NCBI GenBank assembly: GCA_048270185.1
Contig: JBLWTJ010000002.1
Coordinates: forward strand, 65,517-89,516
Direction of reading: 5' to 3'
DNA length: 24,000 nt
DNA from: Bacteriovoracaceae bacterium
GTDB taxonomy: Bacteria; Bdellovibrionota; Bacteriovoracia; Bacteriovoracales; Bacteriovoracaceae
Positions 1,997 through 18,857 of this stretch are shown one piece after another. A program made the position numbers and the translations under genes. Position 1 is the first letter of the stretch; each line of letters begins with the position of its first letter. A model generated the notes under the pieces. The model did not search any database. It was not told where the DNA came from and saw only the letters and a list, made by a program, of their open reading frames with translations.

Positions 1997-2033
1997 AATT
2001 TCTCCAATTTTTAGTTTTAATGATTTTAAAAAA

Positions 2034-2414: not shown

Positions 2415-2481
2415 AATCTAATTATATTTATATTTCACTATATGTAAGTAAAAAAAGACACAGATCTTTTAATAACACTTA

Positions 2482-2877: not shown

Positions 2878-2895
2878 GACTTTCTCCTATGAAAA

Positions 2896-2926: not shown

Positions 2927-2977
2927 ATCGTAAAAAACATAAAATCAAATTAATTAAAGGTTCCTGGATACTTTTCG

Positions 2978-2995
2978 GGATGCGCAACAGCATCC
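2978..2995 (-). terminator. Weak hairpin at the 3' end of the thermonuclease gene
   Basis: GGATGC (2978-2983) and GCATCC (2990-2995) form a 6 bp stem with a 6 nt loop that touches the TAG stop. There is no convincing U-tract on the minus strand. Confidence 0.3.
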
Positions 2996-3468: not shown

Positions 3469-3512
3469 ACGTCACCTATCGGATAATTATCAAAATAAAT
3501 TAGTTACAAAGC

Positions 3513-3803: not shown

Positions 3804-3813
3804 GTATTAACCC

Positions 3814-4044
3814 TCACTTTGAAATATAATAAAAAAATGCAACCCCAGCTAATTCCACAATATCGCTTATCACCCACCTTAGAAGATAAGAATTCATCTT
3901 CTGGCCAAAAGGAAGTTTCAATTCGGCCCACTGATAGAATCTAAAATGCTTAGCAAATTTTTGAATTAGTGTTGTGTAGCCAAATAGAACAATCGCAATA
4001 CCTGCAAATTCCTCTCCTCCATTAATAAGAATGATAAAGTACAA
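3814..4044 (-). CDS. Small two-TM membrane protein; the start is uncertain
   Basis: The track start is TTG at 4044. A strong AGGAGG (4073-4078, minus strand) sits 28 nt upstream, followed only by in-frame ATA/ATT codons. Two hydrophobic helices are present, the second carrying an Asp (RWVISDIVELAGVAFFYYI). It fills an otherwise empty 270 nt gap in a minus-strand operon. Confidence 0.35.
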   Translation of the reverse strand: MYFIILINGGEEFAGIAIVLFGYTTLIQKFAKHFRFYQWAELKLPFGQKMNSYLLRWVISDIVELAGVAFFYYISK

Positions 4045-4076
4045 AAGGATTACAATATTCTTTCTTATAATGCCTC

Positions 4077-4436
4077 CTAGGCCAATACATCATAAATAAT
4101 TAACATCTGCTGCGTTGATAAAACCATCCCTACAAAAGGTAATAGGAATACTATAGGTGAAATTTTCATATTACTTATGAGATAAGTTATAAATGCAATT
4201 GATACTCCATAGAGAAAAGAAAGTAGTGAGACAGCAATAGCAGGCCCCATGGCCTTTGGATCAGAAATATTCTGCAGTAGTAAAATATAACCAATAATAG
4301 GGCCTAAGAAAGAAGCAAAGAGCGCTGAATTAATAATATAATCTTTGCGGACTTCTTTTTTTACAATAAGAGTCAATGCAATTAGCCCTAGAACAATTAA
4401 TAATGAATACCAATCAACAAATATCATAAGATTCAT
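4077..4436 (-). CDS. Miniature MotA/TolQ/ExbB-like proton-channel family membrane protein
   Basis: SFLGPIIGYILLLQNISDPKAMGPAIAVSLLSFLYGVSIAF matches the conserved core of the MotA_ExbB family (P..G..GT..G......dp..lg..iA.AL.tT.yG). It is only 119 aa with 3-4 TM helices. Confidence 0.5.
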   Translation of the reverse strand: MNLMIFVDWYSLLIVLGLIALTLIVKKEVRKDYIINSALFASFLGPIIGYILLLQNISDPKAMGPAIAVSLLSFLYGVSIAFITYLISNMKISPIVFLLPFVGMVLSTQQMLIIYDVLA

Positions 4437-4445
4437 AAGTCTCCC

Positions 4446-5999
4446 CTAGAACTCAAAACCAATTCCGATTTTGACTTCTTCTTCATTAAAATTTCTGAAC
4501 TCGTTTCTTTTAATATAGAGATTCAAGTAAGCATTCTTATCTCGATTACCATATTGAAACATGGTCATTCCCATATTGAAGTTATAAGACTGGGCACTTC
4601 TTTGGGTTGCCGAGATTTCACTGTCATATCGATTATCATTGTAATAATGTGTCTTTTGCTCTTTTAAGAAACCATATCCTAAGTTAGCGTAGCCCTTTGC
4701 ACTCTTATAAATAACGAGATTCACCCCAGACTCAGTGCGTGTAGTATCCTCAACCGTGTCGTCATCATTCTCGATTGAGTTGTACTCAATTTCACTATAG
4801 ACCCAAAGGTATGAGAAAAGCTTATAGTCGAGGCGTATTGGAAGTTGAGCAAACTCTCCCTTTCCTTCTCTGACAACAGCGGGATTATAATTGATAATCC
4901 AATTTCCTTCGATATAAGGAGGAGTTTTAGATAGAGAGATTGTCTCCTCTGGCATGAAACGATTTGGCGTAAATTTTAATTGCCCCTCATAGACAACATA
5001 ATCTTGCTTTACTAATTTTAGTTTCGACTCCTTGTCATAGCGAATAAGGATTGGTGTTACTCCTTTGTATTCATCATCAAGATAAACAGAAGCGCCGATT
5101 GGATTAGAGCGAATCATTACACGACTCTCTCTAGGTCGCATTTTCAAGTTAAGATCAAGGACCTCACTCTCTCCTATAGAAACGGGATAGATCATCGAGT
5201 AATAATCGGGGTGAGAAAGTGTAATTTGATGCTCAACTGACGCCTTAAGGGTTAGTCGATCATCATTACTTTTCTTACCATTTACCTTAACCTGAGCATT
5301 TCGAGGATAAGTGCTTAGCTTAATCTTTCCAGTCGCTTCTTTTAAAATAATATTTTGAGAGATCTTGCCTTGAATTAGGATATTTCGAGTAACTTGCTGA
5401 TAACCTCTTTTGTTAATTACCAGTAAGTACTTTCCATGTTCAAGAGAGACACTACAATTTGTCGTTGCATAGCGCTTTGAGTTCTTCTCAAGATTGATGA
5501 TCTCAACATTTGCATCTGCTGGAGCAGTTGTCAGAGTCAAGACACTCTTTAGGGCGCGGTCACCATAGAGATTAAGAAGCTCATCTTTATTTTGGCGACG
5601 TCTCTTCTCTTTCTCAATAGAAACCTTTGAGTAGCGAACTTGGCGGTAAACAATATAAGCACCATCCTTTGTTTTAACCGTTTCTTTAAATGGCGCAAGC
5701 CCTTCAATATTAATATTCTTATTTCTAAGCACAGAGCTTTCTTGAATCTGAGTTTCATCAAGGTCAGATAGAATTGAACTTGAGTACTCGAGATTGACCC
5801 CGTAATTATGAATAACAGCTTCATTAAGGGCATTGTAGTAGGCCTCTCTGTAAGCTTCATTGAGCTTCTTCTTCCCTTCAGAAATTCCGACATAGTATTG
5901 GTAATCCTTATCCTCACTATAGACCTTGGAAGTCCAATCACCACTGGCAAGCAGTGATGACTGGAGGATAAGAAAGGCGTTGAGCCATTTAAAGAACAT
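4446..5999 (-). CDS. Outer-membrane protein: LPP20-like N-domain, three PEGA domains and a C-terminal beta-barrel
   Basis: Signal peptide MFFKWLNAFLILQSSLLASG. An LPP20-like YYVGISEG....A...A...A segment is present. PEGA-like repeats are TLTTAPADANVEI, IKLSTYPRNAQVKVNGK and VMIRSNPIGASVYLDDEYKGVTPI. The protein ends VKIGIGFEF with a terminal Phe, typical of OMP barrels. AGGAG SD lies inside the upstream gene end. Confidence 0.7.
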   Translation of the reverse strand: MFFKWLNAFLILQSSLLASGDWTSKVYSEDKDYQYYVGISEGKKKLNEAYREAYYNALNEAVIHNYGVNLEYSSSILSDLDETQIQESSVLRNKNINIEGLAPFKETVKTKDGAYIVYRQVRYSKVSIEKEKRRRQNKDELLNLYGDRALKSVLTLTTAPADANVEIINLEKNSKRYATTNCSVSLEHGKYLLVINKRGYQQVTRNILIQGKISQNIILKEATGKIKLSTYPRNAQVKVNGKKSNDDRLTLKASVEHQITLSHPDYYSMIYPVSIGESEVLDLNLKMRPRESRVMIRSNPIGASVYLDDEYKGVTPILIRYDKESKLKLVKQDYVVYEGQLKFTPNRFMPEETISLSKTPPYIEGNWIINYNPAVVREGKGEFAQLPIRLDYKLFSYLWVYSEIEYNSIENDDDTVEDTTRTESGVNLVIYKSAKGYANLGYGFLKEQKTHYYNDNRYDSEISATQRSAQSYNFNMGMTMFQYGNRDKNAYLNLYIKRNEFRNFNEEEVKIGIGFEF

Positions 6000-6002
6000 G
6001 GC

Positions 6003-6581
6003 CTACTCCTGGCCAAGTTTAGTAATCTGTCCTTGAAGGTGGTTATCAACAGCGGCCTTGAACTCTTTCGATAGTCCTTTTTCGTGATTTAAGGCGTACT
6101 TCATTGCTTTCTTAAGCTTTGATTCTTTTAACGAGATAAGGCTATAGATCTTTAGCACATACTTTGGTGCCCCATCTTCATCAAAAGTCTTAACTTTTTC
6201 CCAGTACCTTTCTTCTTGGTAAATTCCCGAGCTGATATGCTTTGAGAACTCGTTACCATAGAACCTTGCAAGCTCTCCGGAATTCTCAACACCTTCCTCA
6301 GCGTTTTGGAAGATGAAGCTCATCTCATTAACAATGGTACGAGAAATTTCGTGACGAGCATTATTGTCTGCCACTCTTGCCAAGGCAGTAACCTTCGCAT
6401 TAATTGAGGCTTCGGCTACACCAACACTATAGACCTTGCCTTCCTTTTTAAACATCGGCTTTGTGATGTCGGCCCATGCTGGTTTGCTCTCATAATTAGA
6501 GCTGTGAGAGATAACTTTCTCAGTAAATGATGAACATGAATAAATGATGAATAAAGAAAGTAAAATAATGTAGTTCCTCAT
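6003..6581 (-). CDS. LPP20-family lipoprotein
   Basis: MRNYIILLSLFIIYSC is lipobox-like. VYSVGVAEASINAKVTALARVADNNARHEISRTI is LPP20-like. A strong GGAGGA SD is present, and the stop lies 3 nt before the next ATG. Confidence 0.65.
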   Translation of the reverse strand: MRNYIILLSLFIIYSCSSFTEKVISHSSNYESKPAWADITKPMFKKEGKVYSVGVAEASINAKVTALARVADNNARHEISRTIVNEMSFIFQNAEEGVENSGELARFYGNEFSKHISSGIYQEERYWEKVKTFDEDGAPKYVLKIYSLISLKESKLKKAMKYALNHEKGLSKEFKAAVDNHLQGQITKLGQE

Positions 6582-6727: not shown

Positions 6728-7735
6728 ATGAGTTCGACAGTGGAAAAATTCTTTAATGTCATTGAGGCCATCCTTTGTCATAGCAAGGGGCAAATCAGTG
6801 AAGAAGAGCTTAAGAGTGTTCTAGGTGATCCACCAAGATCGACTTGGTTTAAGCATAAGAAAGAACTCATTAATGAGAATTATGGGCTTCTTGATGAAGT
6901 TAAGTCACCAGAAGGTCTGTCCTATTTCTCCCTTAAACCATTTAATAACCAATTTAATTATTTAGAGAAGAGAGAGCTCTATATCATGGAAGCCTATAAG
7001 CACTTAGGCTTCCTTCTTGATGCAAATTTTGATTCCATTAAGTTTCAAAGCTCTCAAGATGTCTCGACAAAAGATTTAAATGAGTTGTCACGTAAGTTCT
7101 TCTATCTTTCAAAGAATCACGCAAAGGATACTTCAAAAGAACAAAAAGAAATTTATGAAAATCTAACGACGTCACTTCTTCAGAATAAAGAAGTCTTCAT
7201 TCACTATCCTTCTGCAAATGATATCGATGGGACAAGACTTCGAAGGGTTCGCCCTCTCACGATTTGCTATCACCTTGATGACCTCTATCTGCTCGCTAAT
7301 GAAGAGAAAATCGTCGATGGAAAAGCGAGTTGGGTTGATCGAAATTTTAAGATGAGTCGAATCAAGTCTCTGACTCTTTCTAATAATAGTTTTAATTATC
7401 CAAGTGCTACTAAGTGGAATCCAAAGAAGGAGTATGAAAATACTAGTGGACTCTATAAGGGTGAAGTCAGGGTGGCCACAGCAAATATCTATGGGGTCCT
7501 GAGAAAGCTCTTAAAAGAGAAGAATATCATCAACTCATCTCTCATTAGTGAGCATGATGACTTTGATACATATGAATTTAAATACACAGATGAAGTCGAG
7601 TTTCTTGGAAAGTTTTTAACCTGGGCCGATTCATTTGAAATTCTATCCCCCTTAACTCTAAAGGATCACTTCATCCAAAAGCTAGAAGCTGCAATAACTT
7701 TAAATAGCTCTAAGAAGCTAAAGAAAGCTGCTTAA
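6728..7735 (+). CDS. WYL-domain transcriptional regulator (HTH-WYL-WCX architecture, BrxR/CapW-like)
   Basis: N-terminal wHTH-like FFNVIEAILCHSKGQISEEELKSVLG. WYL domain at about aa 155-217 (VFIHYPS....GTRLRRVRPLTICYHLDDLYLLA......RNFKMSRIKSLTL). C-terminal FLGKFLTWADSFEILSPLTLKDHF matches the WCX tail. Confidence 0.75.
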   Translation: MSSTVEKFFNVIEAILCHSKGQISEEELKSVLGDPPRSTWFKHKKELINENYGLLDEVKSPEGLSYFSLKPFNNQFNYLEKRELYIMEAYKHLGFLLDANFDSIKFQSSQDVSTKDLNELSRKFFYLSKNHAKDTSKEQKEIYENLTTSLLQNKEVFIHYPSANDIDGTRLRRVRPLTICYHLDDLYLLANEEKIVDGKASWVDRNFKMSRIKSLTLSNNSFNYPSATKWNPKKEYENTSGLYKGEVRVATANIYGVLRKLLKEKNIINSSLISEHDDFDTYEFKYTDEVEFLGKFLTWADSFEILSPLTLKDHFIQKLEAAITLNSSKKLKKAA

Positions 7736-9197
7736 CGAGCTTCTTTGCGACCTTTTGAGAAAGCTTACTTGGCCTACAATTACTCTTGCCCTTATGCTGA
7801 ACGACTTGAAAATCTCGATGAAAGTATTCTCTTCTAATCTCTATTGTCGAGCGCTCTCCTAATACCTCAAGGGATAAGATACGCGAACTTCCTGACTCAA
7901 CTAAGCGATCATAACCATGCGTTCCCACACAGTGATCCATCTCCTTAGTCTCTTGTTCGAGATCAAACCTTGTTAGAAGCTCTCTTAACTCAACCTTCTC
8001 TAGGCTACTCACTGCAGACAAGTCCAGAGGCGTATTAAGCTTTGCATATCGACCTTTAAACTCTTCTGCTTCAATCAGAGACGCTAAGACATTGTACATC
8101 AAGTAAGGATTTATTCTCTGGGCCGGATACTGTTGGCATACATTCTTTAATGTCACAAAGAAGATATCTCCATATGTCTTTATCTGTTTCTTGAAAATAA
8201 AAAGGTCATTAACCAGTTCGTGAAAACATATTTCCGGGCGAGACAAGTAATTAGAAAATTCAAACCGTCCCATATAAGAGCTTACAAAGTTTAACTTCTC
8301 TTTTGAAATGGCCTGTGGAAGAGTTTCTTGAAAACTATCAATACTATAATTTGATTTTTCAACGAGAAATGAAAAGACATCTGGATAGGTCAAGAGATCG
8401 GCCATTCTTCTTACGAGTCCCTTAGGCTTTGAGTGATATAACTGCATACAAAAGTGCATAAGCCTTTTATCATCTTGGATGAGAGGATGAATCTGTCCTA
8501 ATGGCATCTCTTCATTAACTTCACTAATGAGCTCGTTATACCCCGAAATACGCTCTTCACTTCGAACAATCATTCCCATAAAGCACGAACCATAGGCTCC
8601 TTCAAAAGAGGCCATATAAGCTAAGGAGTTAATCTCATGCATGACATTCACATAGCACTCTTCTTCGCTCTTGGCCGACTTTAAGACATTAACTAAGGAC
8701 TTATCAATATCCTCTTTTCTTTGAGGTGTCGCATAGACCTGCTTCTTCTTTTCAAAATCTGCAAATTCTGAGGTAGCTAGAAATTGCCTCGAAAAAATAT
8801 CGTAGGCAATTTGATGAGAGTTGATTGTTGCGCTCTTTATAATCTCATCGATTGGATTTCCCTTTGTCGAAAATGGCTTTATAATCAAACCCTTTTGGCT
8901 ATAAGACCTTAGAAAAACTGTTTCTTTACCGGCTCGATGAAGCTCACTTCGATACGTATGCTTATAAATCGTTAGGGTATCAGGAAGTGTTAACTCTCTT
9001 TTTAGAAATCCCTGATAGATCGTAAAAAGGTCTTCTCCTGTAATAAAAAAGCTAGAAGTTGGATTCTTCATTCGTAAGCGTTGAATATCAAACTGGCCAG
9101 AGAAGATTCTAAGTAGCAGCTTCTCAAACGTCAGAGACTTTGATTGCAGCGTATTCTTTATGTAATTTAATTGTAGATGATCTAAAATCAGTCCCAT
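7710..9197 (-). CDS. PcfJ-like domain protein (C-terminal PcfJ domain, N-terminal 390 aa unknown)
   Basis: The C-terminus LEQETKEMDHCVGTHGYDRLVESGSSRILSLEV.GERSTIEI........VVQHKGKSNCRP matches the PcfJ signature (EG..M.HCV..Y......G...I.SLR......T.E.........Q.rG..N). The 3' end overlaps the WYL gene by 26 nt. Confidence 0.6.
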   Translation of the reverse strand: MGLILDHLQLNYIKNTLQSKSLTFEKLLLRIFSGQFDIQRLRMKNPTSSFFITGEDLFTIYQGFLKRELTLPDTLTIYKHTYRSELHRAGKETVFLRSYSQKGLIIKPFSTKGNPIDEIIKSATINSHQIAYDIFSRQFLATSEFADFEKKKQVYATPQRKEDIDKSLVNVLKSAKSEEECYVNVMHEINSLAYMASFEGAYGSCFMGMIVRSEERISGYNELISEVNEEMPLGQIHPLIQDDKRLMHFCMQLYHSKPKGLVRRMADLLTYPDVFSFLVEKSNYSIDSFQETLPQAISKEKLNFVSSYMGRFEFSNYLSRPEICFHELVNDLFIFKKQIKTYGDIFFVTLKNVCQQYPAQRINPYLMYNVLASLIEAEEFKGRYAKLNTPLDLSAVSSLEKVELRELLTRFDLEQETKEMDHCVGTHGYDRLVESGSSRILSLEVLGERSTIEIRREYFHRDFQVVQHKGKSNCRPSKLSQKVAKKLVKQLSLAS

Positions 9198-9253
9198 GAC
9201 TTACTCCCCCTCTAGCGAATAATAGAGGAAGCACGTCTAGGATATTGAGACTT

Positions 9254-9739
9254 TTAAGCTTTACAGAGAATTGGCCAACCAAACTCTGAGCGAACGACAT
9301 TTTCTACGAATACTCTCAAGGCCTTACTATCATCACTAACGTCAATATAGCCTTCAAGCTTATCCTTGAGGCACTTTTCATAAATGACAGCATATTCATA
9401 ATTAACTTTATATCGACCTAACGCCAAGCAGGCCGTCCCCTTGTAGCCATTTTCAGAGAAGTGGGCATTAAGCCTATTCTTAACATTCTTTGCCATGCCA
9501 AAATAATGAAACTTCTTACTCTCAATATTCTTTAAGCCAGAATTAGCTTTAATGGTATTAGGGATATGCACATGCTTACTTGCCTTAAGAGGATTCTGTT
9601 TTATCTTATTAAGTCCTATAACTTTTATTAGATACCATCCAGGCTTACCTTTGATACTTTCGAAACCATCACTCTTCATTTTCTTGATAGCATCTTCAAC
9701 TTCTTCACGAATTATTGATCTTACTGTATCGAGGCTCAT
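9254..9739 (-). CDS. Small putative GIY-YIG-superfamily nuclease-like protein
   Basis: PGWYLIKV and FHYFGMAKNVKNRLNAHF resemble the GIY...YIG....R..H motifs. The spacing between the two motifs (about 43 aa) is much longer than canonical, so the call is tentative. It lies 56 nt upstream of the PcfJ-like gene on the same strand. Confidence 0.35.
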   Translation of the reverse strand: MSLDTVRSIIREEVEDAIKKMKSDGFESIKGKPGWYLIKVIGLNKIKQNPLKASKHVHIPNTIKANSGLKNIESKKFHYFGMAKNVKNRLNAHFSENGYKGTACLALGRYKVNYEYAVIYEKCLKDKLEGYIDVSDDSKALRVFVENVVRSEFGWPILCKA

Positions 9740-9913
9740 GTTATACTCCCTAGCTGTATTCTTAATAGCTTAACTCTTTAACCACACAATTTATTGTCAT
9801 AATTTTAGAGAACGCCACTATTAGTATATACCCAACAAGCTGTTTTTCCGTACAAAATATATTTCATTTAAAATCTTCCATCTTGACTGACATAAAAAGA
9901 GAGAGATTTAGAA

Positions 9914-11194
9914 ATGAAAGAATACACGCCAAAACACTTCTACACGATTTTTGATCCATTTTTAAAAGCCGAGTTATTCACAAAAGAAAATGAAAAGAAC
10001 ACTCAAGGCCATGAGTTTCAAAGGCAGCTCAAGGAGAAATACCAGAATATGAAAGATGGTGATAACTGCCTTCAGTATATGTACTGGGGAAAGATCTCTG
10101 TCTCTCAAAAGGCTTCTAAATTGGGAACTGAGCTAAATGAGCTTGTTGAAAAAAACAGAAAGCATAATTTTACGACTCACCTATTTATTAGTGACTTCAA
10201 TCACCTCTGGGTCGCAAAGGTTGAAGAAGTATGCTTTGGTGACGATGAAGAGTTCTATGCAAATGCTTTGGACTTCTACCGAGAGTTTCAAGGTAAGGGG
10301 CAAATCGAAGCTTGGTTTAAGATCTCAGATATTGATCTCATTGGAAATAATGCTGAAGAAACTCATCAGTATATTTCTAGTCTTGAAACAATTATCAACT
10401 CGAATAAAGTTTATATCACTCCATACGTCAGTAACTTAAGATACCCTGTCATTGTCAAAGACTTCGCCTGTGTGGAACCAGTCCACTTTGATACATCAAG
10501 GCCACTTGTACTGGAGAACTTAATCGAGAATGAATCCTTCTATGAGAAGATAAAAATGATCATTACAAAGTATAGTATTCCTAAAGAAGAGTTCGAAAAG
10601 CTTAAGCCAACAGTCCAAAAAGAAATCATTCGAACGGAAATGGACTTCTTTGATCAGAAGGCCAAGAATTGGAATAGTCTCTACTTCTCATATTTTAAGG
10701 CCCTTGAGTGGCAGCTCAATCATGTGGTTCTAAACTTCCTTAAGTCAGAGTATAAAGATGGAGAAATTCAAGTTCTTAGAAAGAATAATAATTGTGCGAC
10801 TTTCTACTTTCCTGACAATCCAAATAATCAACCAGGAGATGAATGTATTCCACTAAATGAATACCATGGTAACTTCTCAATCAAGGTTATTATGAATTGT
10901 CTGTTTTCAGGAAGTAATAAGGTCGTCTCAAAGAAAGGTAACCGCCAAGTCTTCTCGGCCCTCCCTGGCCTCTATCAATATGTCTCAGAAGACTTAAAGA
11001 GTTTTCTCAATCTAAATAAAATCGTAGATACCAGAAATATCATTGTTCACAATGATTCATTAGAAGTTACTGAAGCCGACTTTAAAAAGATACGAAATGA
11101 GCTTCTAGGGATCGCAAAGACTGGGATTCTCGTGGAGCTTGCAAATTACACAACTAAGGAACAAAACAAAGCAAGACTCAAGGTTGCGGCTTAA
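9914..11194 (+). CDS. Two-domain protein: unknown N-terminal domain plus a C-terminal HEPN-like (DUF4145/Abi-type) putative RNase domain
   Basis: The canonical HEPN motif R-N-I-I-V-H (Rx4H with polar N after R) lies at 11033-11050, in the context VDTRNIIVHNDSLEVTEADFKKI. This resembles DUF4145 (iRn.gaH....it.eea). An upstream helix FKALEWQLNHVVLNFLK is present. The N-terminal 220 aa have no motif I recognise. Confidence 0.5.
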   Translation: MKEYTPKHFYTIFDPFLKAELFTKENEKNTQGHEFQRQLKEKYQNMKDGDNCLQYMYWGKISVSQKASKLGTELNELVEKNRKHNFTTHLFISDFNHLWVAKVEEVCFGDDEEFYANALDFYREFQGKGQIEAWFKISDIDLIGNNAEETHQYISSLETIINSNKVYITPYVSNLRYPVIVKDFACVEPVHFDTSRPLVLENLIENESFYEKIKMIITKYSIPKEEFEKLKPTVQKEIIRTEMDFFDQKAKNWNSLYFSYFKALEWQLNHVVLNFLKSEYKDGEIQVLRKNNNCATFYFPDNPNNQPGDECIPLNEYHGNFSIKVIMNCLFSGSNKVVSKKGNRQVFSALPGLYQYVSEDLKSFLNLNKIVDTRNIIVHNDSLEVTEADFKKIRNELLGIAKTGILVELANYTTKEQNKARLKVAA

Positions 11195-11300
11195 ATATCT
11201 GTAATCACAAAAGAGACAGAGGTTTGTGCTCAAGTAATTTCGCTTATGGCCCGAAAAGTAAAGATAGCTTGAAAAGTAATAAGAAAATAGGAAAGGATAT

Positions 11301-13028
11301 ATGCCATTACATATCTTAAAAACTTCTCCAAAGCTTGGAGAGAAGAAAGTACTTAAGCATATTGAAGAATTATATAAAGATGTTGAGCGCGATGTTTATG
11401 TCATCAGTGATAATCTTCTAAGTATTGATGAAGGTGTTTCTTTTAAGCCAGACTTTATCATTCTTGATCCAACTTACGGAATTTCAATTATTGAAGTAAA
11501 GAGCTACAAAGAAGATAGTATCGACAAGCTCGATAATTTTACCATCACATTCACTAATGGTGATACCGACTTATCCCCTTTCAAAAAGTGTCAGGACTAT
11601 CGCTTTAAATTATCAGACTATTTAAATGCCAATGAACTAGATATTTCCATGAAGAAGATTAAAACACTTCTCGTCTTCACAAATATCAAAGAAGACCTAT
11701 TTAGAGAATATGACTATGTGGAGTCTCACTATAAGAACTTTCAAGAAACTTTAAATCTTGAAACTCTATTTCCACAAACACCTATTCAAAAGAAGAAGAT
11801 AAACGATATCTACATGGCCATGAATCCAGTTATGTACTTTAATATTGAAACACAGGACACCGCCAGTTCATCATTTGATAAATTAGATGAAGACCAGCTC
11901 GACTTTGTAAAAAAGCCAATTGGTGGCCACTACCTAATCTCAGGAATTCCAGGAAGTGGTAAATCCGTCGCTGTTGTCTCTCGTGCAATCTATATCGCCA
12001 ATGAGAAGCCTGATTGGAAAATCCTCGTCCTTTCTGAAAATAAGTTTTTAAAAGAGAAGAATGAGAAGGCCATTAGAGAGCGCACAAAGAATTTTAATAA
12101 GCTTGGAAACGATACTGAGAATAATATCGTCTGCATGACCTTAATGAAGCTTCTCACAGACACTTCACCAGAAGAAGCTGACAAGTTTATGAAGTATCCT
12201 GACAAGGTCGACTTTCTAACCAATGCCATTCTTGATTCTGAAATTGTCGCGAAGTATGACGCCGTCTTAATCGATGAGTACCAAGACTTCTCAGATGATC
12301 ATATACGCATTGCAAAGCTTGTCACTAAGAAGAAATCAACAATTATTAATAATGAAGAAAGGCTCATTGAAAATATCTTTCTATCTGGAGACCGATTACA
12401 AAAGGTTAAAGAAAAAGGCAGTTCAGGAAATTGGATTGATATTGGTATTGAAATTTCAGGGCGCAGTAAGAAGCTAAAAGGAAGCTATCGCTGTGGACGA
12501 GAGATTATCGACATCGCCTTAAGCTTTTTAAAGTCTGCCGGAAAAGTCGTAAAAGACGAAGTTGAATCCTACTACGAAGGAACTGATACTATTGAGTATC
12601 TTGGAGACTTAACAGGAAGCTTCTCGACCTTCACAGGTTGGGATGATCTTGGAGTTGCAAAGATTCACAATTGGGTCAATGCACTAACCTCAAAAGGTGT
12701 TCCTCCATCTGATATCTTAATTATCACACCTAATAATACAACCTTGGTTAATAAACTTAAGAAAGCATTTCACAATGAAGTCTCAGAAGGCCTACTCATT
12801 GGAATGCCAAGTAATATCAAAGGCCTTGAAGCAGGTCACTGCGCTATCTATAACTTTGATAGCATTGGTTACCATTCATCTTCACAGTCAAATAAGTATA
12901 AGCAAATCTACATGTGCTTAACGAGGGCCAGATCAAGTATCTTCATCAACTGCTGGAAGGCCGGCAATGAAGACTTTGAGAAGCTTGAAGAAATTATCGC
13001 ATCAAAGACAGATTTTGAAGCGGCTTAG
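11301..13028 (+). CDS. NERD nuclease-related domain fused to a UvrD/Rep-like SF1 helicase
   Basis: NERD: GEKKVLKHIEEL....VYVISDNLL.....FKPDFIILDPTYGISIIEVKSYK. Walker A GIPGSGKS (11943-11966). Motif II VLIDEYQDFS (DEYQD at 12273-12287). Motif IV-like LKGSYRCGREI. KGLEAGH is present. Motif VI YMCLTRARSSIFI. AGGAAAGGA SD. Confidence 0.85.
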   Translation: MPLHILKTSPKLGEKKVLKHIEELYKDVERDVYVISDNLLSIDEGVSFKPDFIILDPTYGISIIEVKSYKEDSIDKLDNFTITFTNGDTDLSPFKKCQDYRFKLSDYLNANELDISMKKIKTLLVFTNIKEDLFREYDYVESHYKNFQETLNLETLFPQTPIQKKKINDIYMAMNPVMYFNIETQDTASSSFDKLDEDQLDFVKKPIGGHYLISGIPGSGKSVAVVSRAIYIANEKPDWKILVLSENKFLKEKNEKAIRERTKNFNKLGNDTENNIVCMTLMKLLTDTSPEEADKFMKYPDKVDFLTNAILDSEIVAKYDAVLIDEYQDFSDDHIRIAKLVTKKKSTIINNEERLIENIFLSGDRLQKVKEKGSSGNWIDIGIEISGRSKKLKGSYRCGREIIDIALSFLKSAGKVVKDEVESYYEGTDTIEYLGDLTGSFSTFTGWDDLGVAKIHNWVNALTSKGVPPSDILIITPNNTTLVNKLKKAFHNEVSEGLLIGMPSNIKGLEAGHCAIYNFDSIGYHSSSQSNKYKQIYMCLTRARSSIFINCWKAGNEDFEKLEEIIASKTDFEAA

Positions 13029-13044
13029 TAACTAGTTTAGAAGT

Positions 13045-13650
13045 TTAGACAAAGTACTTCTTATAGTGCTCTAGACGGTAGTCATAAGTTGGCTTCTTCC
13101 CTGTATATGAAAGTTTCCAATTCTTATACTCTGCATTTCGCCCAATGCCTCGCGAAGCCTGCCCAGACGGTGAAATCAAAACAACTTCAACAACCTGTCC
13201 GACTACATTCGGCTTAATATTTTCACAAAACCAATCTCTTACCTGCTGTGAAGTAAAATAGATTTTTTCGATTTTATTCTCATTAATAATATTCGCAAGT
13301 CCGTGATTCCAAGTTTGCTCATGAAGATCTGCATCTGATGCACTCCCCTTGTGACGCTGGCATGAGTGAATAACATCAGAGATACCGATATTTCGTGCAC
13401 TCAACTCTTCCTTAATCGCTTCCTTACTTGTAAGCTTTCGTCCGAAGCAATCCCCTAATAATCGCCAAAGAAGATTCTGATTTCCACCATAGTAGAAGTT
13501 AACCTCACCTTCATTGATCTCATCACTTCTTTCAGGATTCGTGAACTTTCCAATGGGAAATGATCCGACAATAAGCTTACGACATCCTTCTGGAATATAG
13601 TCGCCAAATGGATGAACCTCTACTGGCCCTAAATCTAGTTTCTTACTCAT
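13045..13650 (-). CDS. Uracil-DNA glycosylase superfamily protein (hypoxanthine/deoxyinosine-DNA glycosylase-like, family 6-like)
   Basis: KLIVGSFPIGKF.....NFYYGGNQNLLWRLLGDCFG matches the LiLGSFPS....YY.hp.N.FW.ll motif. ISDVIHSCQRHKGSASDADL matches the second motif (D....c.r.gS.D..i). GGAGG SD 5 nt upstream. Confidence 0.7.
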   Translation of the reverse strand: MSKKLDLGPVEVHPFGDYIPEGCRKLIVGSFPIGKFTNPERSDEINEGEVNFYYGGNQNLLWRLLGDCFGRKLTSKEAIKEELSARNIGISDVIHSCQRHKGSASDADLHEQTWNHGLANIINENKIEKIYFTSQQVRDWFCENIKPNVVGQVVEVVLISPSGQASRGIGRNAEYKNWKLSYTGKKPTYDYRLEHYKKYFV

Positions 13651-13674
13651 TCATTCCTCCGAAAACTATCACTA

Positions 13675-13860
13675 TTATAACTTAAATATATCAAATGATA
13701 CTAATCGATAGATTTTATTATAGATAAACCTCTTAGGTGACCTAAGCCATCCCCATCCCCTTGGCATCTTAATTCCAAGGCCATGAACTGCCCTTCTCCT
13801 AATGGATGTCCTAGCTGATATCCTCTTTTTCAATGAAAACTTTCTTGCGCCAAACTTCAT
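13675..13860 (-). CDS. 61-aa highly basic small protein (MKFGARKFSLKKRISARTSIRRR...)
   Basis: The start is reassigned to ATG 13860, preceded by AAGGGAGA at 6-7 nt. The longer track ORF to 13956 has no SD. The sequence KKRISARTS..RR......G.K.PRGWGW...PKR..YNK.Y resembles a recurrent small basic module I recall from prophage and accessory regions. It lies 24 nt upstream of the glycosylase gene. Confidence 0.5.
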   Translation of the reverse strand: MKFGARKFSLKKRISARTSIRRRAVHGLGIKMPRGWGWLRSPKRFIYNKIYRLVSFDIFKL

Positions 13861-13979
13861 GAGTGATCTCCCTTTTTTAGAGTATAGACAATGGAGGTCT
13901 CGGATTGTGAGACAAAAGTCATGCATAATACAATAACTAAACACTAAATAAAACACCCTTATTAACCGATAGGATTGCT

Positions 13980-15977
13980 ATGAAGTATTTAACAAAGTCT
14001 AAGTTCAAGCTAGGTCTCGAATGTCCTACAAAGCTCTACTATAACGAAGATAAAGAGTACGCTAACGCCAATCTAGATGACCCATTTCTTGCGGCTTTAG
14101 CAAAGGGAGGCTTTCAAGTTGGAGAACTTGCAAAGTGTTACTATCCTGAAGGTTTTGATATCGTTGAGTTAGACTATGAAACTTCAACATCTAAAACGAG
14201 CAAACTCATGGAAGCTCAAGATGTCACAATCTTTGAAGCAGCAATCCAATACAAGAACCTCTTTGTAAGAGTTGATATTTTAGAAAAGGTTGGAAATACC
14301 ATCAACCTGATCGAAGTAAAATCAAAATCAGTTGACCCTGGTCAATTTGAAGACCAGCTCTGGAGTAAAACTGCGGCGAAAAAGGGAGAGCAAAAGCTTC
14401 TCTCAACATGGAAGTCCTATATTTATGACGTGGCCTTCCAAGCCTATGTCTTAAAAAAGGCCTTCCCAAATATGACGATCAATAGCCATCTCATGTGCGC
14501 AGACAAATCAACGATTGCCACAGTCGATGGCCTCAATCAGAAGTTTGTTCTTAAAGAAGAAAATGGACGAAGCTACGCTGAGGTCAATGGCGACATCAGT
14601 CCAGACGCCCTTGGCGAAGAGATCCTTTGTAAAATCCCTCTTAACGAGGTCGTTGAAATTATTCATAGTGAAAATGAGATGAGTGAACGCTTCAACGGAC
14701 TTGGGTTTGAAGCAGCAATTTGGCAATTTGCTGACTCCCTTACTCAAGGAGAGAAGATTGAATCAGTGGTTTCTTCAAAGTGCAAGAATTGTGAATTTAG
14801 AGCAAGTGAAGAAGGCAAGAAATCAGGGTTTAATGAATGTTGGTCCCTCGCTCATGGCCTCTCACAAGAAGAACTCGAACAGCCTCTTGTCTTTGATGTT
14901 TGGAATTTTCGAGGTGGAGACAAAGCGCTTGAAAGTGGCAAAGTCCTACTTGAAGACCTCGATGCTACCGATATAAAAACAAACCCAAGAAAAGACGGTA
15001 TCGGACTCTCAAATGGAGAGCGCCAGCTTCTGCAAGTCGAGAAAGTTAAAGACCATGATGACACATCCTTTATTGATATCGAAGGACTTGCATTAGAAAT
15101 GAACACATGGAACTACCCTCTTCATATGATCGATTTTGAAACATGTATGGTGGCAATTCCCTTTAATAAAGGACAGGCACCGTATGAGCAAATTGCCTTT
15201 CAATTCAGTCATCATATCATTCATGAAGATGGTAAGATCGAACATGCAAATGAGTATATCAATGCAACTCAAGGCTTCCACCCAAACTTTGAGTTTGTCA
15301 GACGTCTAAGAGATGCCCTTGGCGACAAAGGTTCGATCTTTCGCTACTCAAACCATGAGAACACAGTACTCTGCCAAATTAGACAGCAACTTCTTGATTC
15401 TGAGGAAAGCGATGCTGATGAGTTAATCAAATTCATCGAAACAATAACAAATAAGAAATCTGGAAAAGAATATGCCTGGAAGGGAGATCGCGACATGATT
15501 GACCTTTGTGAGATGGTTAAGAAGTACTACTACTCACCACTTACCAATGGCTCTAATTCAATCAAGTACGTACTACCTGCAATCCTAAATGAATCCAACT
15601 TCATTCAAGAAAAGTATTCTAAGCCAATCTACGGTAAAGGCCATGAGATCGAATCTAAGAATTTTGACTCGCATACTTGGATCTCACTAGACGAGAGCGG
15701 CGATGTCATTAACCCATATAAGACACTTCCACCAGTATTTGATAATTATGACTACGATGAACTTGAATTAGTTGGTGAGAATGATATTGCAAATGGTGGA
15801 GCGGCCCTTACAGCATATGCCATGATGCAATTCACTCATATGTCAGATATCGAGCGAGAGAAAGTAAAGTCAGCGCTTCTTCGCTATTGTGAATTAGATA
15901 CCCTCGCGATGGTTATGATTTGGGAGCATTGGAATCATTTAATTACGGAGTCTCAAACAGAGAGAGAGGCATCATAA
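13980..15977 (+). CDS. DUF2779 family protein: N-terminal Cas4-like PD-(D/E)XK nuclease plus C-terminal RNase H-like/DEDD-type exonuclease fold
   Basis: The N-terminus LTKSKFKLGLECPTKLYY is typical of DUF2779. D99...E112-V-K114 (VRVDILEKVGNTINLIEVKS, 14274-14321). Cys cluster C15 plus CKNCEF...ECW. The C-domain opens with MIDFETCMVAIPF....APYEQIAFQFSHH (DFE at about 15132-15140). Confidence 0.75.
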   Translation: MKYLTKSKFKLGLECPTKLYYNEDKEYANANLDDPFLAALAKGGFQVGELAKCYYPEGFDIVELDYETSTSKTSKLMEAQDVTIFEAAIQYKNLFVRVDILEKVGNTINLIEVKSKSVDPGQFEDQLWSKTAAKKGEQKLLSTWKSYIYDVAFQAYVLKKAFPNMTINSHLMCADKSTIATVDGLNQKFVLKEENGRSYAEVNGDISPDALGEEILCKIPLNEVVEIIHSENEMSERFNGLGFEAAIWQFADSLTQGEKIESVVSSKCKNCEFRASEEGKKSGFNECWSLAHGLSQEELEQPLVFDVWNFRGGDKALESGKVLLEDLDATDIKTNPRKDGIGLSNGERQLLQVEKVKDHDDTSFIDIEGLALEMNTWNYPLHMIDFETCMVAIPFNKGQAPYEQIAFQFSHHIIHEDGKIEHANEYINATQGFHPNFEFVRRLRDALGDKGSIFRYSNHENTVLCQIRQQLLDSEESDADELIKFIETITNKKSGKEYAWKGDRDMIDLCEMVKKYYYSPLTNGSNSIKYVLPAILNESNFIQEKYSKPIYGKGHEIESKNFDSHTWISLDESGDVINPYKTLPPVFDNYDYDELELVGENDIANGGAALTAYAMMQFTHMSDIEREKVKSALLRYCELDTLAMVMIWEHWNHLITESQTEREAS

Positions 15978-16015
15978 GATAAGAATGAAGAAGTCTCTAA
16001 AAAAGGTAAACTGCT

Positions 16016-17290
16016 TTAAGCTGCAATTGAATTACTTTTGATGACCTTCTCTACACTAACAGAATCTATTTTATCGATTAACCTCAGAAAATCGGTATAC
16101 TTGTGTATTAACTCTAGAGTCTCATAAAGATTTTCCATCGTTTTTGGAGATGCAAGTCGTCGTTTATTTCCTAGATAGCTCTTTGGATCACTAAGTATTC
16201 CACGGTATACATTCAAGGCCATCACTTCAAGAAAATTTATAATTTGGTCTCTTGGAATTTTTGAAGGAACGAGAATTCGCTTAAAGCTTCTCTTTCCATG
16301 ATATTCATCTTCGATAATGAATGATAAATCACTATCAAGCTTGAGCTTCAGTTTCTTAGCATGGTGCCTAGGAGGAGTAATTATTAAAGTTTTACTTCTT
16401 AAGGATTCTCTCGATTTTGGGTGTAAAGTCCATTGTCCTGGTACATCATCACTTTTTAAACGATTGAGGGACTCTGTGAAGCACTCACCGAAACTCCAAA
16501 GAATATCTAACTTTGCCTCATGAATAATATCATTATTACTACCATTCTTATCAAGGCGTATATTATTGAGAGCATTTAAAAACTCTAAGACATTTATTAA
16601 ATTCTTTACTCGTTTATTCTTAGTAGGATTTTTAAGATTTAATGAGTGTAGTATTTCAAGAATATCCTTAGTCCAAGACAATTGAACCCAATACTTTGCT
16701 TCAATTCCATCCTTGCCTGAATCGTGTGCTTTAGGAGGAACACCAAGCAAAGTTAAATAAACATACTCCTGGTACTTCTCACGATAAAATACTTCATTAA
16801 AATATTTACGATAATAATATAATTGATCTTTGTGATTATGAGTAAATAGTTTATTTTCTACGACGAGTGTAAAACTATCCTTCTTATCTAAGTCTAGAAG
16901 GACTATATCGCACTGTCCATACTTATCCTTTGAATTGACGGCCCCCAATGGAAACTCTCTTATGACACCTGCATTAGTAATCCCGCGCGCTAGATCACTA
17001 ACTGACTTTCGAGATGAATTTGTACGATGCTTTCTTAAAACTAACTTATTCTTCTTAGACTTTAGTCCGTTAGCTTCCTCAGCTCTATTCGCTGCAATTT
17101 TAGTAATAAACTTTTTTGGGAAGGAACTACCAAAATAGCTCTTTTCTCTCGAATCCAGTAAGGCCGCAAACATATTCGAAAACCACTCTTCACTCATTGA
17201 AAAGTGAATCAAGTCCTGCCAATCTTTGTGATCTTTAGAAATTTTATCAAAAATAGCTTTTAACTTACTGAGATTACGTTGAGTCGTCAT
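16016..17290 (-). CDS. PD-(D/E)XK nuclease superfamily protein (PDDEXK_4-like)
   Basis: EEWFSNMFAALLDSRE...FG..F..KFI and QCDIVLLDLDKKDSFTLVVENKLFTHNHKDQLYYYRKY match the family pattern (E..hS.fla.LLdp ... riDi.i.....iviENKi.a.e...QL.rY). Strong AAGGAGG SD. Confidence 0.7.
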   Translation of the reverse strand: MTTQRNLSKLKAIFDKISKDHKDWQDLIHFSMSEEWFSNMFAALLDSREKSYFGSSFPKKFITKIAANRAEEANGLKSKKNKLVLRKHRTNSSRKSVSDLARGITNAGVIREFPLGAVNSKDKYGQCDIVLLDLDKKDSFTLVVENKLFTHNHKDQLYYYRKYFNEVFYREKYQEYVYLTLLGVPPKAHDSGKDGIEAKYWVQLSWTKDILEILHSLNLKNPTKNKRVKNLINVLEFLNALNNIRLDKNGSNNDIIHEAKLDILWSFGECFTESLNRLKSDDVPGQWTLHPKSRESLRSKTLIITPPRHHAKKLKLKLDSDLSFIIEDEYHGKRSFKRILVPSKIPRDQIINFLEVMALNVYRGILSDPKSYLGNKRRLASPKTMENLYETLELIHKYTDFLRLIDKIDSVSVEKVIKSNSIAA

Positions 17291-17326: not shown

Positions 17327-17887
17327 CTACCCCAGAATTAAGTTTAACCATCTCTCATCACGATCAGGCCTCTTATCCTCGGTAATCCAATCTTTCTCTA
17401 TCCTCAGATTCGAAGGCAAAAACTCTTTAATCGTCTCAAGAGTTTGATCATTGAAGAAGCGACCATTCCTCTCCCCTTCATGCTCTCCATATTTGAAAGA
17501 ACAGTAAAAGACCGCATCGTCATTCATAAGGTTTGATATTTTTAATAAGACATCTTTAAGTTCGTTTGAGGGCACATGTAACAGAGAAGCACATGCCCAG
17601 ATTCCATCAAATTTAGAATCAAGACTTACTTCCTGAAGTGTTCCGAGATGAACAACACAACCACTGTGAGAACGAGCAAATTGCGCGAGTTTCTCACTTG
17701 GTTCAAGACCTATAGCTTCATATCCATGATCTTTAAAATACTTGAGATCTCGTCCCGGGCCACAGCCGATGTCTAAGATCAATCCGCCATCCTTTACGTT
17801 TTCGAGAAATGGTTTGTAAAGATGTGACAGGTCTAAATCTAGAGTTGAATCAATGAATTCTTGGTTATTCTTATCGTAGTAATTCAT
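17327..17887 (-). CDS. Class I SAM-dependent methyltransferase (small-molecule/Methyltransf_11-25 type)
   Basis: Motif I LILDIGCGPGRD, then an acidic post-I residue (GLE). There is no (D/N/S)PP(Y/F/W) DNA-MTase motif. It lies 36 nt upstream of the PDDEXK_4 gene on the same strand. Confidence 0.8.
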   Translation of the reverse strand: MNYYDKNNQEFIDSTLDLDLSHLYKPFLENVKDGGLILDIGCGPGRDLKYFKDHGYEAIGLEPSEKLAQFARSHSGCVVHLGTLQEVSLDSKFDGIWACASLLHVPSNELKDVLLKISNLMNDDAVFYCSFKYGEHEGERNGRFFNDQTLETIKEFLPSNLRIEKDWITEDKRPDRDERWLNLILG

Positions 17888-17948: not shown

Positions 17949-18857
17949 ATGATCGAAGATTTTATCCAATGGTACGACAATATTAATAAGGCACGTGCAA
18001 AAGACTATTATGCGCCTCACAAGCCAATAACAATCCTATATGCACTTGTCAAAGCAGCGAAAAATGTACGCTGGATTGAATTCAATAGAGATCGTGAAGA
18101 GCTTGAGTCTATTATTAGTGAGTTTACTAAGTATTCAACAAGGCCAAATTGTCTTCAGCCTCTTTGGCGACTTACAAATGACTCTAAAGCAATGCCTTAT
18201 TGGACAACACAGCCTGCTAATATTGTTTTAAACAATAAAGGTGATATCCCTACTGGAACAGCAAAAGAGATTAATTTTAAAGCTGGCTTTAGTGACGAGA
18301 TCTATAACAAGCTTAAAAATAATAAAGCTCACATACATGCTCTCATTCGCTATATAACTGAAGACAACTTCCCGGACAGTCTCCATGAAACACTTTGGGA
18401 GCTACTTGGTGTCTTTGACCTAGAAGCTCAAGCTCCTTCAGAAGAAACTATCACGACAACAGTGACAAAAGTGAAGAGAGATCCAAAGTTTCCAAAACTT
18501 ATTCTGTCCCTCTATGGTAACCAATGTGCTTGCTGTGGATTAAAGATTAACTTCAAAAATAACACCGCTCTATCAATGGAAGCTGCTCATATCAAGTGGA
18601 AAGCTCGCGGTGGAGACTGTAATGAGTACAATGGCCTAGCCCTATGTCCAACTCACCACTACACTTTTGATCGTGGTATCTGGACACTTAACTCTGATTA
18701 TAGAATTGAACTTAGTGACTCAATTTTAATTGACCGCAAAAATGACACTTTCTTTACACCCTATATTGGTAAATCTATTGGAAGGTTTATTCTAAATGAG
18801 GAGTTACTACCGAGTGCAGGGAATATTGAGTGGCATAGGAAGAATATTTTGAAATAA
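17949..18857 (+). CDS. HNH endonuclease with an N-terminal ScoMcrA-SBD-like DNA-modification-reader domain (putative type IV restriction enzyme)
   Basis: HNH_2-type motif CACCGL......MEAAHIKW......D...NGLALCPTHHYTFDRGIW. The N-terminal YYAPHKPITILYAL......I.F and CLQPLWRLTNDSK resemble the aPHKPllLL.......pfwrL..Dg pattern of phosphorothioate-sensing SBD-HNH enzymes. Confidence 0.6.
   Translation: MIEDFIQWYDNINKARAKDYYAPHKPITILYALVKAAKNVRWIEFNRDREELESIISEFTKYSTRPNCLQPLWRLTNDSKAMPYWTTQPANIVLNNKGDIPTGTAKEINFKAGFSDEIYNKLKNNKAHIHALIRYITEDNFPDSLHETLWELLGVFDLEAQAPSEETITTTVTKVKRDPKFPKLILSLYGNQCACCGLKINFKNNTALSMEAAHIKWKARGGDCNEYNGLALCPTHHYTFDRGIWTLNSDYRIELSDSILIDRKNDTFFTPYIGKSIGRFILNEELLPSAGNIEWHRKNILK

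Follow-up and report, generated by a model that had tools for sequence, protein, structure and literature searches.

Two adjacent genes and their domains

The stretch analyzed here (the window, 24,000 nt of contig JBLWTJ010000002.1 from a Bacteriovoracaceae bacterium, assembly GCA_048270185.1) carries two adjacent genes, denoted gene 1 and gene 2. Gene 1 encodes a PUA-like domain fused to a probable HEPN domain, and gene 2 encodes a NERD domain fused to a UvrD-like helicase of superfamily 1 (SF1). An earlier note, made from the sequence alone, had proposed the pair as a candidate undescribed anti-phage system. To our knowledge, immunity in predatory Bacteriovoracia has hardly been explored. 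The reading that we favor, by a modest measure, is that of two separable modules sharing an operon in a WYL-regulated, nuclease-rich variable island, namely, a PUA-like-HEPN sensor-effector and an autonomous NERD-UvrD enzyme. The features of the two genes are as follows.

9914..11194, + strand: gene 1, 426 amino acids (aa), PUA-like plus HEPN-like, recognized as an open reading frame (ORF) with homologues
9914..10468, + strand: beta-rich PUA-like domain, approximately aa 1-185 (PF24405, fold hints, conserved columns)
10538..11191, + strand: C-terminal helical domain, probable HEPN endoRNase, approximately aa 209-426, with a beta-hairpin insertion at aa ~286-313
10637..10708, + strand: glutamates E242 (10637-10639, [ST]-A-E-x-x-F) and E265 (10706-10708, K-A-x-E-x-x-L)
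11033..11050, + strand: R374-N-I-I-V-H379, candidate HEPN catalytic dyad, R374 and H379 invariant across phyla
11090..11116, + strand: second block, I-R394-N-E-L-L-G399-I-A (R-x-x-phi-L-G-phi-G), R394 and G399 invariant
11180..11191, + strand: C-terminal tail K-V-A-A of gene 1
11195..11300: spacer between gene 1 and gene 2, 106 nt
11301..13028, + strand: gene 2, 575 aa, NERD plus SF1A UvrD-like helicase
11448..11501, + strand: NERD signature P-D51-F-I-I-L-D56 ... I-I-E65-V-K67, PD...(D/E)xK pattern
11943-11966, + strand: Walker A motif GIPGSGKS
12273-12287, + strand: DEYQD
12483-12497, + strand: SYRCG
12918-12938, + strand: LTRARSS

The NERD signature and the four helicase motifs, read from the sequence, are all kept in the gene 2 orthologue of a second locus, L005 (compared loci are denoted by L numbers). 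Both ORFs lie where the earlier note had put them, 106 nt apart and divergent from a GIY-YIG/PcfJ gene pair, and every motif that it had named was recovered at its position. Because both have homologues elsewhere, these are real genes rather than chance ORFs. A consensus scan of the 106-nt spacer detected no terminator-like or promoter-like site on the + strand, which is compatible with co-transcription of the two genes but is no proof of it.

The N-terminal half of gene 1, in which the earlier note could place no motif, can be placed as PUA-like through Pfam searches with gene 1 and its relatives. Family PF24405 (Pua-like) aligned with aa 55-164 of the gene 1 protein (24.5 bits, E = 2.6e-5; Pfam cutoff, 27) and also matched, with best E-values of 1.3e-8 and 5.8e-8, respectively, 9 of 28 close and 14 of 25 broad relatives; the precomputed annotation of P0001, a protein identical to the gene 1 product, includes PF24405.2. 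The conserved residues of the domain are W58-G-K60, D94, Y122, W134-F-K136, D139, and P178, with W58, Y122, W134, and F135 as conserved aromatics. The full-length AlphaFold2 (AF2) model of gene 1 (predicted local distance difference test [pLDDT], 86) has a beta-rich N-terminal half, for which Foldseek searches of this model against the PDB returned weak matches to YTH and Lon-N/CRBN, none of them significant. Both are PUA-like folds. In sequence-based searches of the PDB, the N-domain profile gave no match, and the full-length gene 1 sequence gave no meaningful one. A true cold-shock domain (3e-9) is present at the N-terminus of three gene 1 relatives, which supports nucleic acid binding.

The C-terminal half of gene 1 is probably a HEPN domain and a predicted endoRNase. 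The motif that the earlier note had highlighted here, R374-x4-H379 within VDTRNIIVHNDSLEVTEADF, is conserved, and the helical domain around it is most probably of HEPN/DUF4145-like type. Throughout a 25-sequence alignment spanning phyla (consensus phi-R-N-x-x-A-H), R374 and H379 are invariant, and so are E242, E265, R394, and G399; the two glutamates, which lie on two long helices, do not vary in A5 and A6, two broad alignments across phyla. AF2 modeling of the C-domain alone gave a pLDDT of 88.7 and a predicted template modeling score of 0.87. When the A6 profile of this domain was compared with the PDB, the top three matches were to the HEPN-MNT toxin, with borderline E-values of 0.025-0.03 and alignment through RNxxxH, and HepS was matched as well (E = 0.81); a profile built from Bacteriovoracia alone gave no meaningful PDB match, so that only the more diverse one reached the HEPN toxins. 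Foldseek searches of the C-domain against the PDB and BFVD yielded nothing significant, the top matches being LsoA (5hy3, prob 0.30) and RnlA (4i8o, prob 0.18). No Pfam HEPN family scored above threshold in gene 1, and among its relatives, the hits to DUF4145 (0.037, two members) and HEPN_Swt1 (0.099, one member) stayed below the gathering score.

The best profile and fold matches of gene 1, all with weak scores, are thus RnlA/LsoA, the HEPN-MNT toxin (SO_3166 type), and HepS, which share with it a helical domain containing R-N-x3-H and act in abortive-infection or toxin contexts. Unlike these toxin systems, the window contains no MNT, RnlB, or Dmd-type antitoxin gene, and the C-domain of gene 1 differs from those of the toxins in its larger size, its beta-hairpin insertion, and its fusion to a PUA-like domain.

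Both domains are spanned, at nearly full length, by the NCBIfam model NF041917 (HP0729 family protein, Helicobacter), which matched gene 1 at aa 58-409 (profile positions 30-354 of 355; E = 1.2e-17). The score of 64.2 bits is far under the equivalog cutoff of 250 bits, which makes gene 1 a distant relation of the HP0729 family rather than a member. HP0729 is among the highly divergent Helicobacter pylori genes (PMC3561388), and both families are functionally uncharacterized. Close relatives of gene 1 are very rare (3 in a word-indexed search, 66 representatives in an exhaustive one), and all 18 genome loci come from Bacteriovoracaceae, Halobacteriovoraceae, or Oligoflexia metagenome-assembled genomes; L003 is on the same contig as L002, so 17 loci are distinct. 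An abundant, distant, high-GC clade shares this two-domain architecture; one scan gave 293 metagenome loci, and the best 80 of them were retained. The neighborhood counts for this clade are over 81 loci, with ORFs called on high-GC loci under a GC3 (GC at third codon positions) filter. PHROGs contained no match to gene 1.

For gene 2, the proposed NERD-UvrD fusion is borne out by Pfam, with both domains above cutoff: NERD (PF08378; 2e-8, 35.2 bits, cutoff 22.1) and UvrD-helicase (PF00580; 2.3e-8, 34.5 bits, cutoff 23, only aa 306-365 aligned). Pfam detected no UvrD_C domains in the gene 2 protein; precomputed Pfam annotation has them for its relatives. The PADLOC model C3a187 (NERD+UvrD) matched gene 2 at 2.1e-29 (100.8 bits, aa 13-412, 385 of 559 model positions), and PADLOC matches to GajB were weak (1.8e-8 and weaker). 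The enzyme would, as predicted from these domains, unwind and degrade DNA. Its homologues form 40 clusters that include proteins from Methanohalobium, Clostridioides, Paraclostridium, Bacteroidota, and Kluyvera.

Gene neighborhoods of the two families

Gene 1 is paired with a NERD-UvrD gene in only 2 of the 17 distinct Bacteriovoracia loci, the window and L005. Between these two, identity is 39% for gene 1 and 46% for gene 2, a parallel divergence from which the two genes can be read as co-inherited where they are paired. The same-strand gene that follows gene 1 varies by locus, at a distance of 106 nt in the window and 6-41 nt elsewhere.

Window and L005: NERD-UvrD
L004: 213-aa protein without assignment, then 810-aa UvrD/GajB-like helicase (GajB, 1e-55)
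L001: 436-aa protein with a JukA-like C-terminus (3e-19)
L006 and L019: EEP-family nuclease
L002 and L018: homologous ~110-aa protein

Two of these partners were checked for a relation to NERD-UvrD, which was rejected: the 213-aa protein of L004, considered as a split NERD domain, has no similarity to one, and the 436-aa protein of L001, considered as a diverged NERD-UvrD, has the JukA-like C-terminus instead. The ~110-aa protein (L002, 11282-11602; L018, 11231-11578) occurs a third time in L008 (1279-1599), there upstream of gene 1. Each copy immediately adjoins gene 1, ends in ..G[FW]YCY.., and is 27-45% identical to the others; no Pfam or PADLOC match was obtained, and a search of the window did not find it. 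A role as small partner or antitoxin of the HEPN-like protein is conceivable.

Conversely, NERD-UvrD relatives with 30-54% identity to gene 2 lack a gene 1 neighbor in 4 of 4 other contexts (L107-L111). The one in L108 (35%) lies within an integrase-bounded island; that in L109 (34%) is near another SF1 helicase and a WYL gene; and those in L110 and L111 (Clostridioides difficile, 30%) directly follow a prophage lysis module and integrase at a prophage end. The L107 gene (54%), the closest stand-alone relative, is monocistronic and located beside ASCH, NTP_transf_6, and PRTase-CE genes. It is divergent from the gene for the ASCH protein (5883-6344), and the PRTase-CE protein comprises 1458 aa (1428-5804). 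ASCH is another member of the PUA-like superfamily, so a PUA-like reader neighbors NERD-UvrD here again, as a different protein. These four contexts free of gene 1 identify gene 2 as an autonomous module of islands and mobile elements. The conserved two-gene system of the earlier note is not upheld by this synteny, given 2 paired loci among 17 on the gene 1 side and none among the four other contexts on the gene 2 side.

The R-x4-H dyad of gene 1 is kept in all island-type and variable-partner loci. It is lost in L007, L015, and a solitary group (L009, L011, L013, L016, and the frameshifted L020) whose fixed setting is flanked by an HTH-DUF4423 gene on one side and an RNase_T-domain gene on the other. 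Such a distribution is expected if the dyad serves a conflict-type activity. The solitary subclade looks like a domesticated or inactivated version; it retains the PUA-like domain, an R-x-x-I-L-G-V-G block, and a ..RKVA tail. The RNase_T-domain gene beside the solitary copies is convergent; in L013 and L016, the gene 1 homologue itself lies at ~9992-11194.

The strongest conserved partner of the gene 1 family by synteny counts is a WYL regulator, which the earlier note had left unlinked to the cassette.

6728..7735, + strand: WYL-WCX transcription regulator (335 aa; BrxR/CapW/PafBC type), ending in ...KKLKKAA

The window protein matched Pfam WYL (5.6e-6), WCX (0.0019, below the 23.9-bit cutoff), and PADLOC WYL (6.4e-17). 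Of the 6 island-type Bacteriovoracia loci, 5 (the window, L001, L002, L004, and L005) contain a WYL-WCX gene, and the synteny common to the window and related Bacteriovoracia loci consists of a PEGA gene, a 192-aa gene, and WYL, which assigns the window to their lineage. In the distant clade, WYL is adjacent to the family gene in 25 of 81 loci; among the 38 loci whose flanks total at least 5 kb, 17 have it within three genes. In L022, L023, and many further loci, tandem PafB/PafC-type genes with helix-turn-helix (HTH), WYL, and WCX domains are in an operon with the family gene.

Helicase-nucleases of several unrelated families also adjoin the gene 1 family. AddA/AdnB-like UvrD+PDDEXK_1 proteins (BLAST cluster c2) occur in nine distant-clade loci and in L031, with AddB/AdnA-like partners in L031 and L091, and in three loci (L024-L026), a PLD-SF2-helicase-DUF3427 fusion lies 12 nt upstream of the family gene, which is followed there by an AlkD-like DNA_alkylation gene. 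Strict phmmer searches retained only four full-length helicases adjacent to distant-clade family genes. ARPP-1 (seven loci), VWA, and AlkD-like DNA_alkylation genes recur near members of this clade; L036, L045, L046, L048, L056, L058, and L075 carry, in this order, a MacB/FtsX-type permease, ARPP-1 (PF20208, 2.7e-76), the PUA-HEPN gene, and a WYL-WYL pair. ARPP-1 is a predicted conflict-system domain. Taken together, the neighbor counts make the WYL regulator the dominant conserved partner and the helicase-nucleases a secondary but real association. The logic of an effector nuclease paired with a helicase, on which the earlier note had built, thereby finds some support, in that unrelated helicase-nucleases (UvrD/GajB-like, AddA/AdnB-like, and PLD-SF2-DUF3427) adjoin the family in several lineages.

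Possible function and relation to known systems

Under the two-module reading, phage attack or DNA damage would produce single-stranded DNA (ssDNA) and degradation products. The nearby WYL regulator, which probably regulates the island or the cassette, would sense ssDNA and alter cassette expression, the NERD-UvrD enzyme would attack the offending DNA, and the HEPN RNase would arrest growth or abort infection. The PUA-like domain of gene 1 would offer a pocket for a base, a nucleotide, or a nucleic acid end, and its HEPN domain would act as a metal-independent endoRNase with an active site formed by E242, E265, R374-x4-H379, and R394. DNA degradation products or ends generated by the helicase-nuclease could be the ligand of the PUA-like domain, and ssDNA could be the WYL signal. 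Such cooperation between gene 1 and gene 2 is plausible by analogy with PUA-Cal-HAD.

The PUA-like sensor of PUA-Cal-HAD is switched on by m6-dAMP that DNA degradation sets free, and fusions of the PUA-like domain to HEPN, DrHyd, TIR, HNH, and McrB effectors are also reported (PMC12871103, a 2026 preprint that mentions neither WYL nor helicases). PUA and DUF3427 domains serve as modification sensors in restriction enzymes (PMC6765204). The logic of a sensor pocket that controls an effector, with a trigger nucleotide derived from DNA degradation, may be likened to that proposed for gene 1. Unlike the PUA-Cal effector, a calcineurin-CE domain with a HAD partner, the effector of gene 1 is HEPN-like and has no HAD partner, and the partners of its family are WYL regulators and helicase-nucleases.

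Several observations weigh against this interpretation. The PF24405 score of the gene 1 protein itself is under the gathering threshold. The WYL gene of the window lies 2.2 kb from gene 1, with two other genes between them. Many neighbors in the distant clade (PafBC-, AdnAB-, and AlkD-like) suggest DNA repair, not immunity. Gene 1 has no PADLOC match, and a scan of viral contigs found no member of its family.

Owing to the PafBC-like, AdnAB-like, and AlkD-like neighbors, a DNA-damage-response module remains a serious rival, although one that we regard as improbable. In such a module, a PafBC/DriD-like WYL regulon would include end-resection helicase-nucleases, the PUA-like domain would recognize nucleic acid ends or bases that are damaged or modified, and RNA processing or a regulatory role during repair or growth arrest would fall to the HEPN-like domain. 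The PafB/PafC-type genes in operon with family members, the AddA/AdnB- and AddB/AdnA-like genes adjacent in L027, L031, L071, and L091, the AlkD-like gene downstream in L024-26, the hypoxanthine-DNA-glycosylase-like gene 17 nt beyond gene 2 in the window, and the absence of family members from the viral contigs scanned would all suit such a role, as would the nature of PafBC, DriD, and SiwR as ssDNA-activated damage regulators. However, the Bacteriovoracia copies that are catalytically intact by motif reside in a hypervariable island with PADLOC-type candidates and swap partners in a manner typical of conflict systems, the JukA-like and ARPP-1 neighbors are conflict-associated, and WYL regulators are just as typical of defense loci (PMC9122601).

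The synteny data disfavor the obligate two-gene system, in which NERD-UvrD would sense foreign DNA and activate or partner the HEPN RNase with Gabija/Hachiman logic, and which we consider rather unlikely. The common strand and the 106-nt gap free of terminator-like sites, the retention of the pair in L005 with parallel divergence, the arrangement of gene 1, the 213-aa protein, and the UvrD/GajB-like helicase in L004, and the unrelated helicase-nucleases next to family members in other phyla speak for an obligate pair, and all of these have to be set against the rarity of the pair in Bacteriovoracia, at least five other downstream partners of gene 1, the occurrence of NERD-UvrD relatives apart from gene 1 (in one case at a prophage end), and the lack of a helicase neighbor in most of the 81 distant-clade loci. 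The least probable alternative, to which we give little credence, is that the C-domain is no nuclease and gene 1 is a non-catalytic PUA-like reader or adaptor, its conserved R, H, and E residues binding a ligand or partner and its R-x4-H being HEPN-like by convergence. The lack of significant HEPN matches in Pfam or Foldseek, the size of the domain (~215 aa with the beta-hairpin insertion, much above the minimal HEPN size), and the existence of an entire subclade that functions without the dyad would fit such a reader; the conservation of the R-N-x-x-A-H consensus and the invariant acidic residues across phyla argues for catalysis, as does the fact that the sole recurrent weak matches are HEPN-clan families or HEPN toxins that align exactly on the motif.

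The PADLOC check of the locus gave no named system covering both genes, as the earlier note had supposed. Its term "undescribed" is only partly true because NERD+UvrD proteins had been flagged as C3a187 (PMC6546367) and the PUA-like-HEPN fusion had already been reported (PMC12871103). C3a187 (PADLOC PDLC01087), itself a candidate, goes back to cluster 187 (Dole_0738) of Shah et al. 2019 (PMC6546367), a putative nuclease-helicase accessory to type III CRISPR-Cas modules. It has the same NERD plus UvrD architecture as gene 2, which is a new member of this known candidate class; unlike C3a187, which is linked to CRISPR type III, gene 2 lies in a window without a CRISPR-Cas locus, no cas genes being found among the window ORFs apart from a weak Cas4-like match in a DUF2779 protein. 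The architecture of gene 1 has likewise been noted computationally and is uncharacterized. Apparently new are the WYL and helicase-nuclease associations of the family and the finding that fixed-context copies have lost the dyad; within the library searched, no paper brought PUA-like, HEPN, and WYL together.

The pairing of a nuclease effector with a helicase in Gabija and Hachiman is echoed by gene 1 and gene 2. Unlike in those systems, nuclease and helicase form one protein in gene 2, its partner is of PUA-HEPN type, and the two genes need not occur together; PADLOC found no GajA (OLD/TOPRIM) match for any neighbor, and neither HamA (DUF1837) nor HamB models were among the PADLOC matches of the window proteins. 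Gene 2 shares the domain chemistry of AddA/AdnB (a UvrD helicase with a PD-(D/E)XK-type nuclease) in reversed order. A review places NERD in "Nhi-like" and Mokosh type I systems (PMC10952713). Nhi and Nhi-like proteins, similarly to gene 2, unite a nuclease and an SF1 helicase in a single polypeptide that acts alone, and gene 2 relatives in islands and prophages occur alone. No Nhi model was among the PADLOC matches of gene 2 at E<=0.1, the Nhi content of that PADLOC version being unconfirmed. The Nhi helicase is of the Upf1/DNA2-like SF1B type, not the UvrD-like SF1A type. BrxR-family WYL regulators co-localize with diverse defense systems (PMC9122601), and CapW, PafBC, DriD, and SiwR are ssDNA-sensing regulators (PMC11662680, PMC11804915, PMC10853764, PMC10693628). 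BrxR/CapW loci (defense) and PafBC/DriD/SiwR loci (DNA damage) have an HTH-WYL-WCX regulator, as found near the cassette; unlike these described loci, in which the PUA-like-HEPN family is not among the known targets, the present ones link it to WYL.

If the two-module reading is true, gene 1 represents a large family in which a PUA-like domain reading nucleotides or modified bases is joined with a HEPN RNase and which has ties to ssDNA-sensing WYL regulators and DNA-end-processing helicase-nucleases. PUA-like sensing of nucleotides from DNA degradation would then extend to an RNase output, and a bridge would exist between anti-phage immunity and the DNA-damage response of PafBC/DriD type. In place of a fixed "HEPN + NERD-UvrD" system, the picture is one of two interchangeable modules.

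The surrounding island and its Ala-Ala tails

The cassette lies in a nuclease-rich, variable island of defense-type genes that extends from ~6.7 to 19 kb of the window. Its PADLOC matches (WYL, C3a187, PDC-S26, HNH, and mad2) are in keeping with a defense-like setting. Besides the WYL gene and the cassette, the island includes the following.

7710..9197, - strand: PcfJ-like gene
9254..9739, - strand: small GIY-YIG nuclease gene
9740..9913: divergent intergenic region between GIY-YIG and gene 1, 174 nt, presumed promoter/operator of gene 1
13045-13650, - strand: hypoxanthine-DNA-glycosylase-like protein, 201 aa (TIGR04274, 6.3e-11, below cutoff)
13980-15977, + strand: DUF2779 protein (2e-25) with weak N-terminal Cas4-like PD-(D/E)XK matches
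16016-17290, - strand: PDDEXK_4 gene, PADLOC single-gene candidate PDC-S26 (1.6e-15)
17327-17887, - strand: small S-adenosylmethionine (SAM) methyltransferase matching mad2 (4e-16)
17949-18857, + strand: HNH_2 restriction-type nuclease (4e-14)
18859-19887, - strand: CoiA-like nuclease

A sigma-70 consensus scan of 9740..9913 gave no convincing promoter site. A DUF2779 homologue lies beside gene 1 in L008 (1-828), which makes it a second recurrent neighbor in the Bacteriovoracia lineage.

Seven of eight consecutive island genes (6728..17290) encode proteins ending in Ala-Ala, Ala-Ser, or Lys-Ala, and the flanking genes do not: WYL (..KKAA), PcfJ (..SLAS), GIY-YIG (..LCKA), gene 1 (..KVAA), gene 2 (..FEAA), DUF2779 (..REAS), and PDDEXK_4 (..SIAA), the respective gene ends being 7735, 7710, 9254, 11194, 13028, 15977, and 16016. 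The only exception is the glycosylase-like gene, which is convergent and ends 17 nt from the gene 2 stop. Ala tails were also seen in L001, L002, L004, L005, L006, L018, and L019, and of the 260 ORFs taken from the window and related Bacteriovoracia loci, 13 have AA as their last two residues, compared with an expectation of 0.7 (p~6e-13). Nearly all Bacteriovoracia relatives of gene 1 keep a [KR]-x-[AVS]-[AS]-COOH tail, which the distant clade lacks. The codons of the tail vary synonymously, pointing to a signal at the peptide level; this variation, together with unrelated downstream DNA, rules out a shared DNA repeat or terminator, and a proteome-wide composition effect is ruled out by the flanking housekeeping ORFs, which have no tail, and by the p-value.

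The island tails resemble the ClpX recognition tails ssrA (..LAA) and MuA/YbaQ type (..KKAI, ..KKVA) and, by this analogy, may mark island proteins for proteolysis or sorting in a lineage-specific manner. The shared tail hints at lineage-specific post-translational control of the entire island. A more elaborate proposal, which we hold to be speculative and doubtful, would make the widespread PUA-like-HEPN family WYL-controlled RNases that sense DNA breakdown, the PUA-like pocket reading (modified) nucleotides or DNA ends supplied by the adjacent helicase-nuclease (NERD-UvrD in the window, AdnAB-like or PLD-SF2 in other loci), with the island proteins under shared K-K-A-A degron control. If its breakdown-sensor part is true, DNA degradation would be linked to RNA-level growth arrest in both immunity and the damage response; if its degron part is true, island proteins, including the regulator, would be kept low by an ssrA/MuA-like tail, an undescribed proteolytic layer.

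The PcfJ-like and GIY-YIG genes form an apparent operon inserted between the WYL regulator and gene 1, with the 3' end of the PcfJ gene overlapping that of the WYL gene by 26 nt. The PcfJ family is known from conjugative plasmids. A weak GIY_YIG_2-like gene follows the WYL gene of L001 as well.

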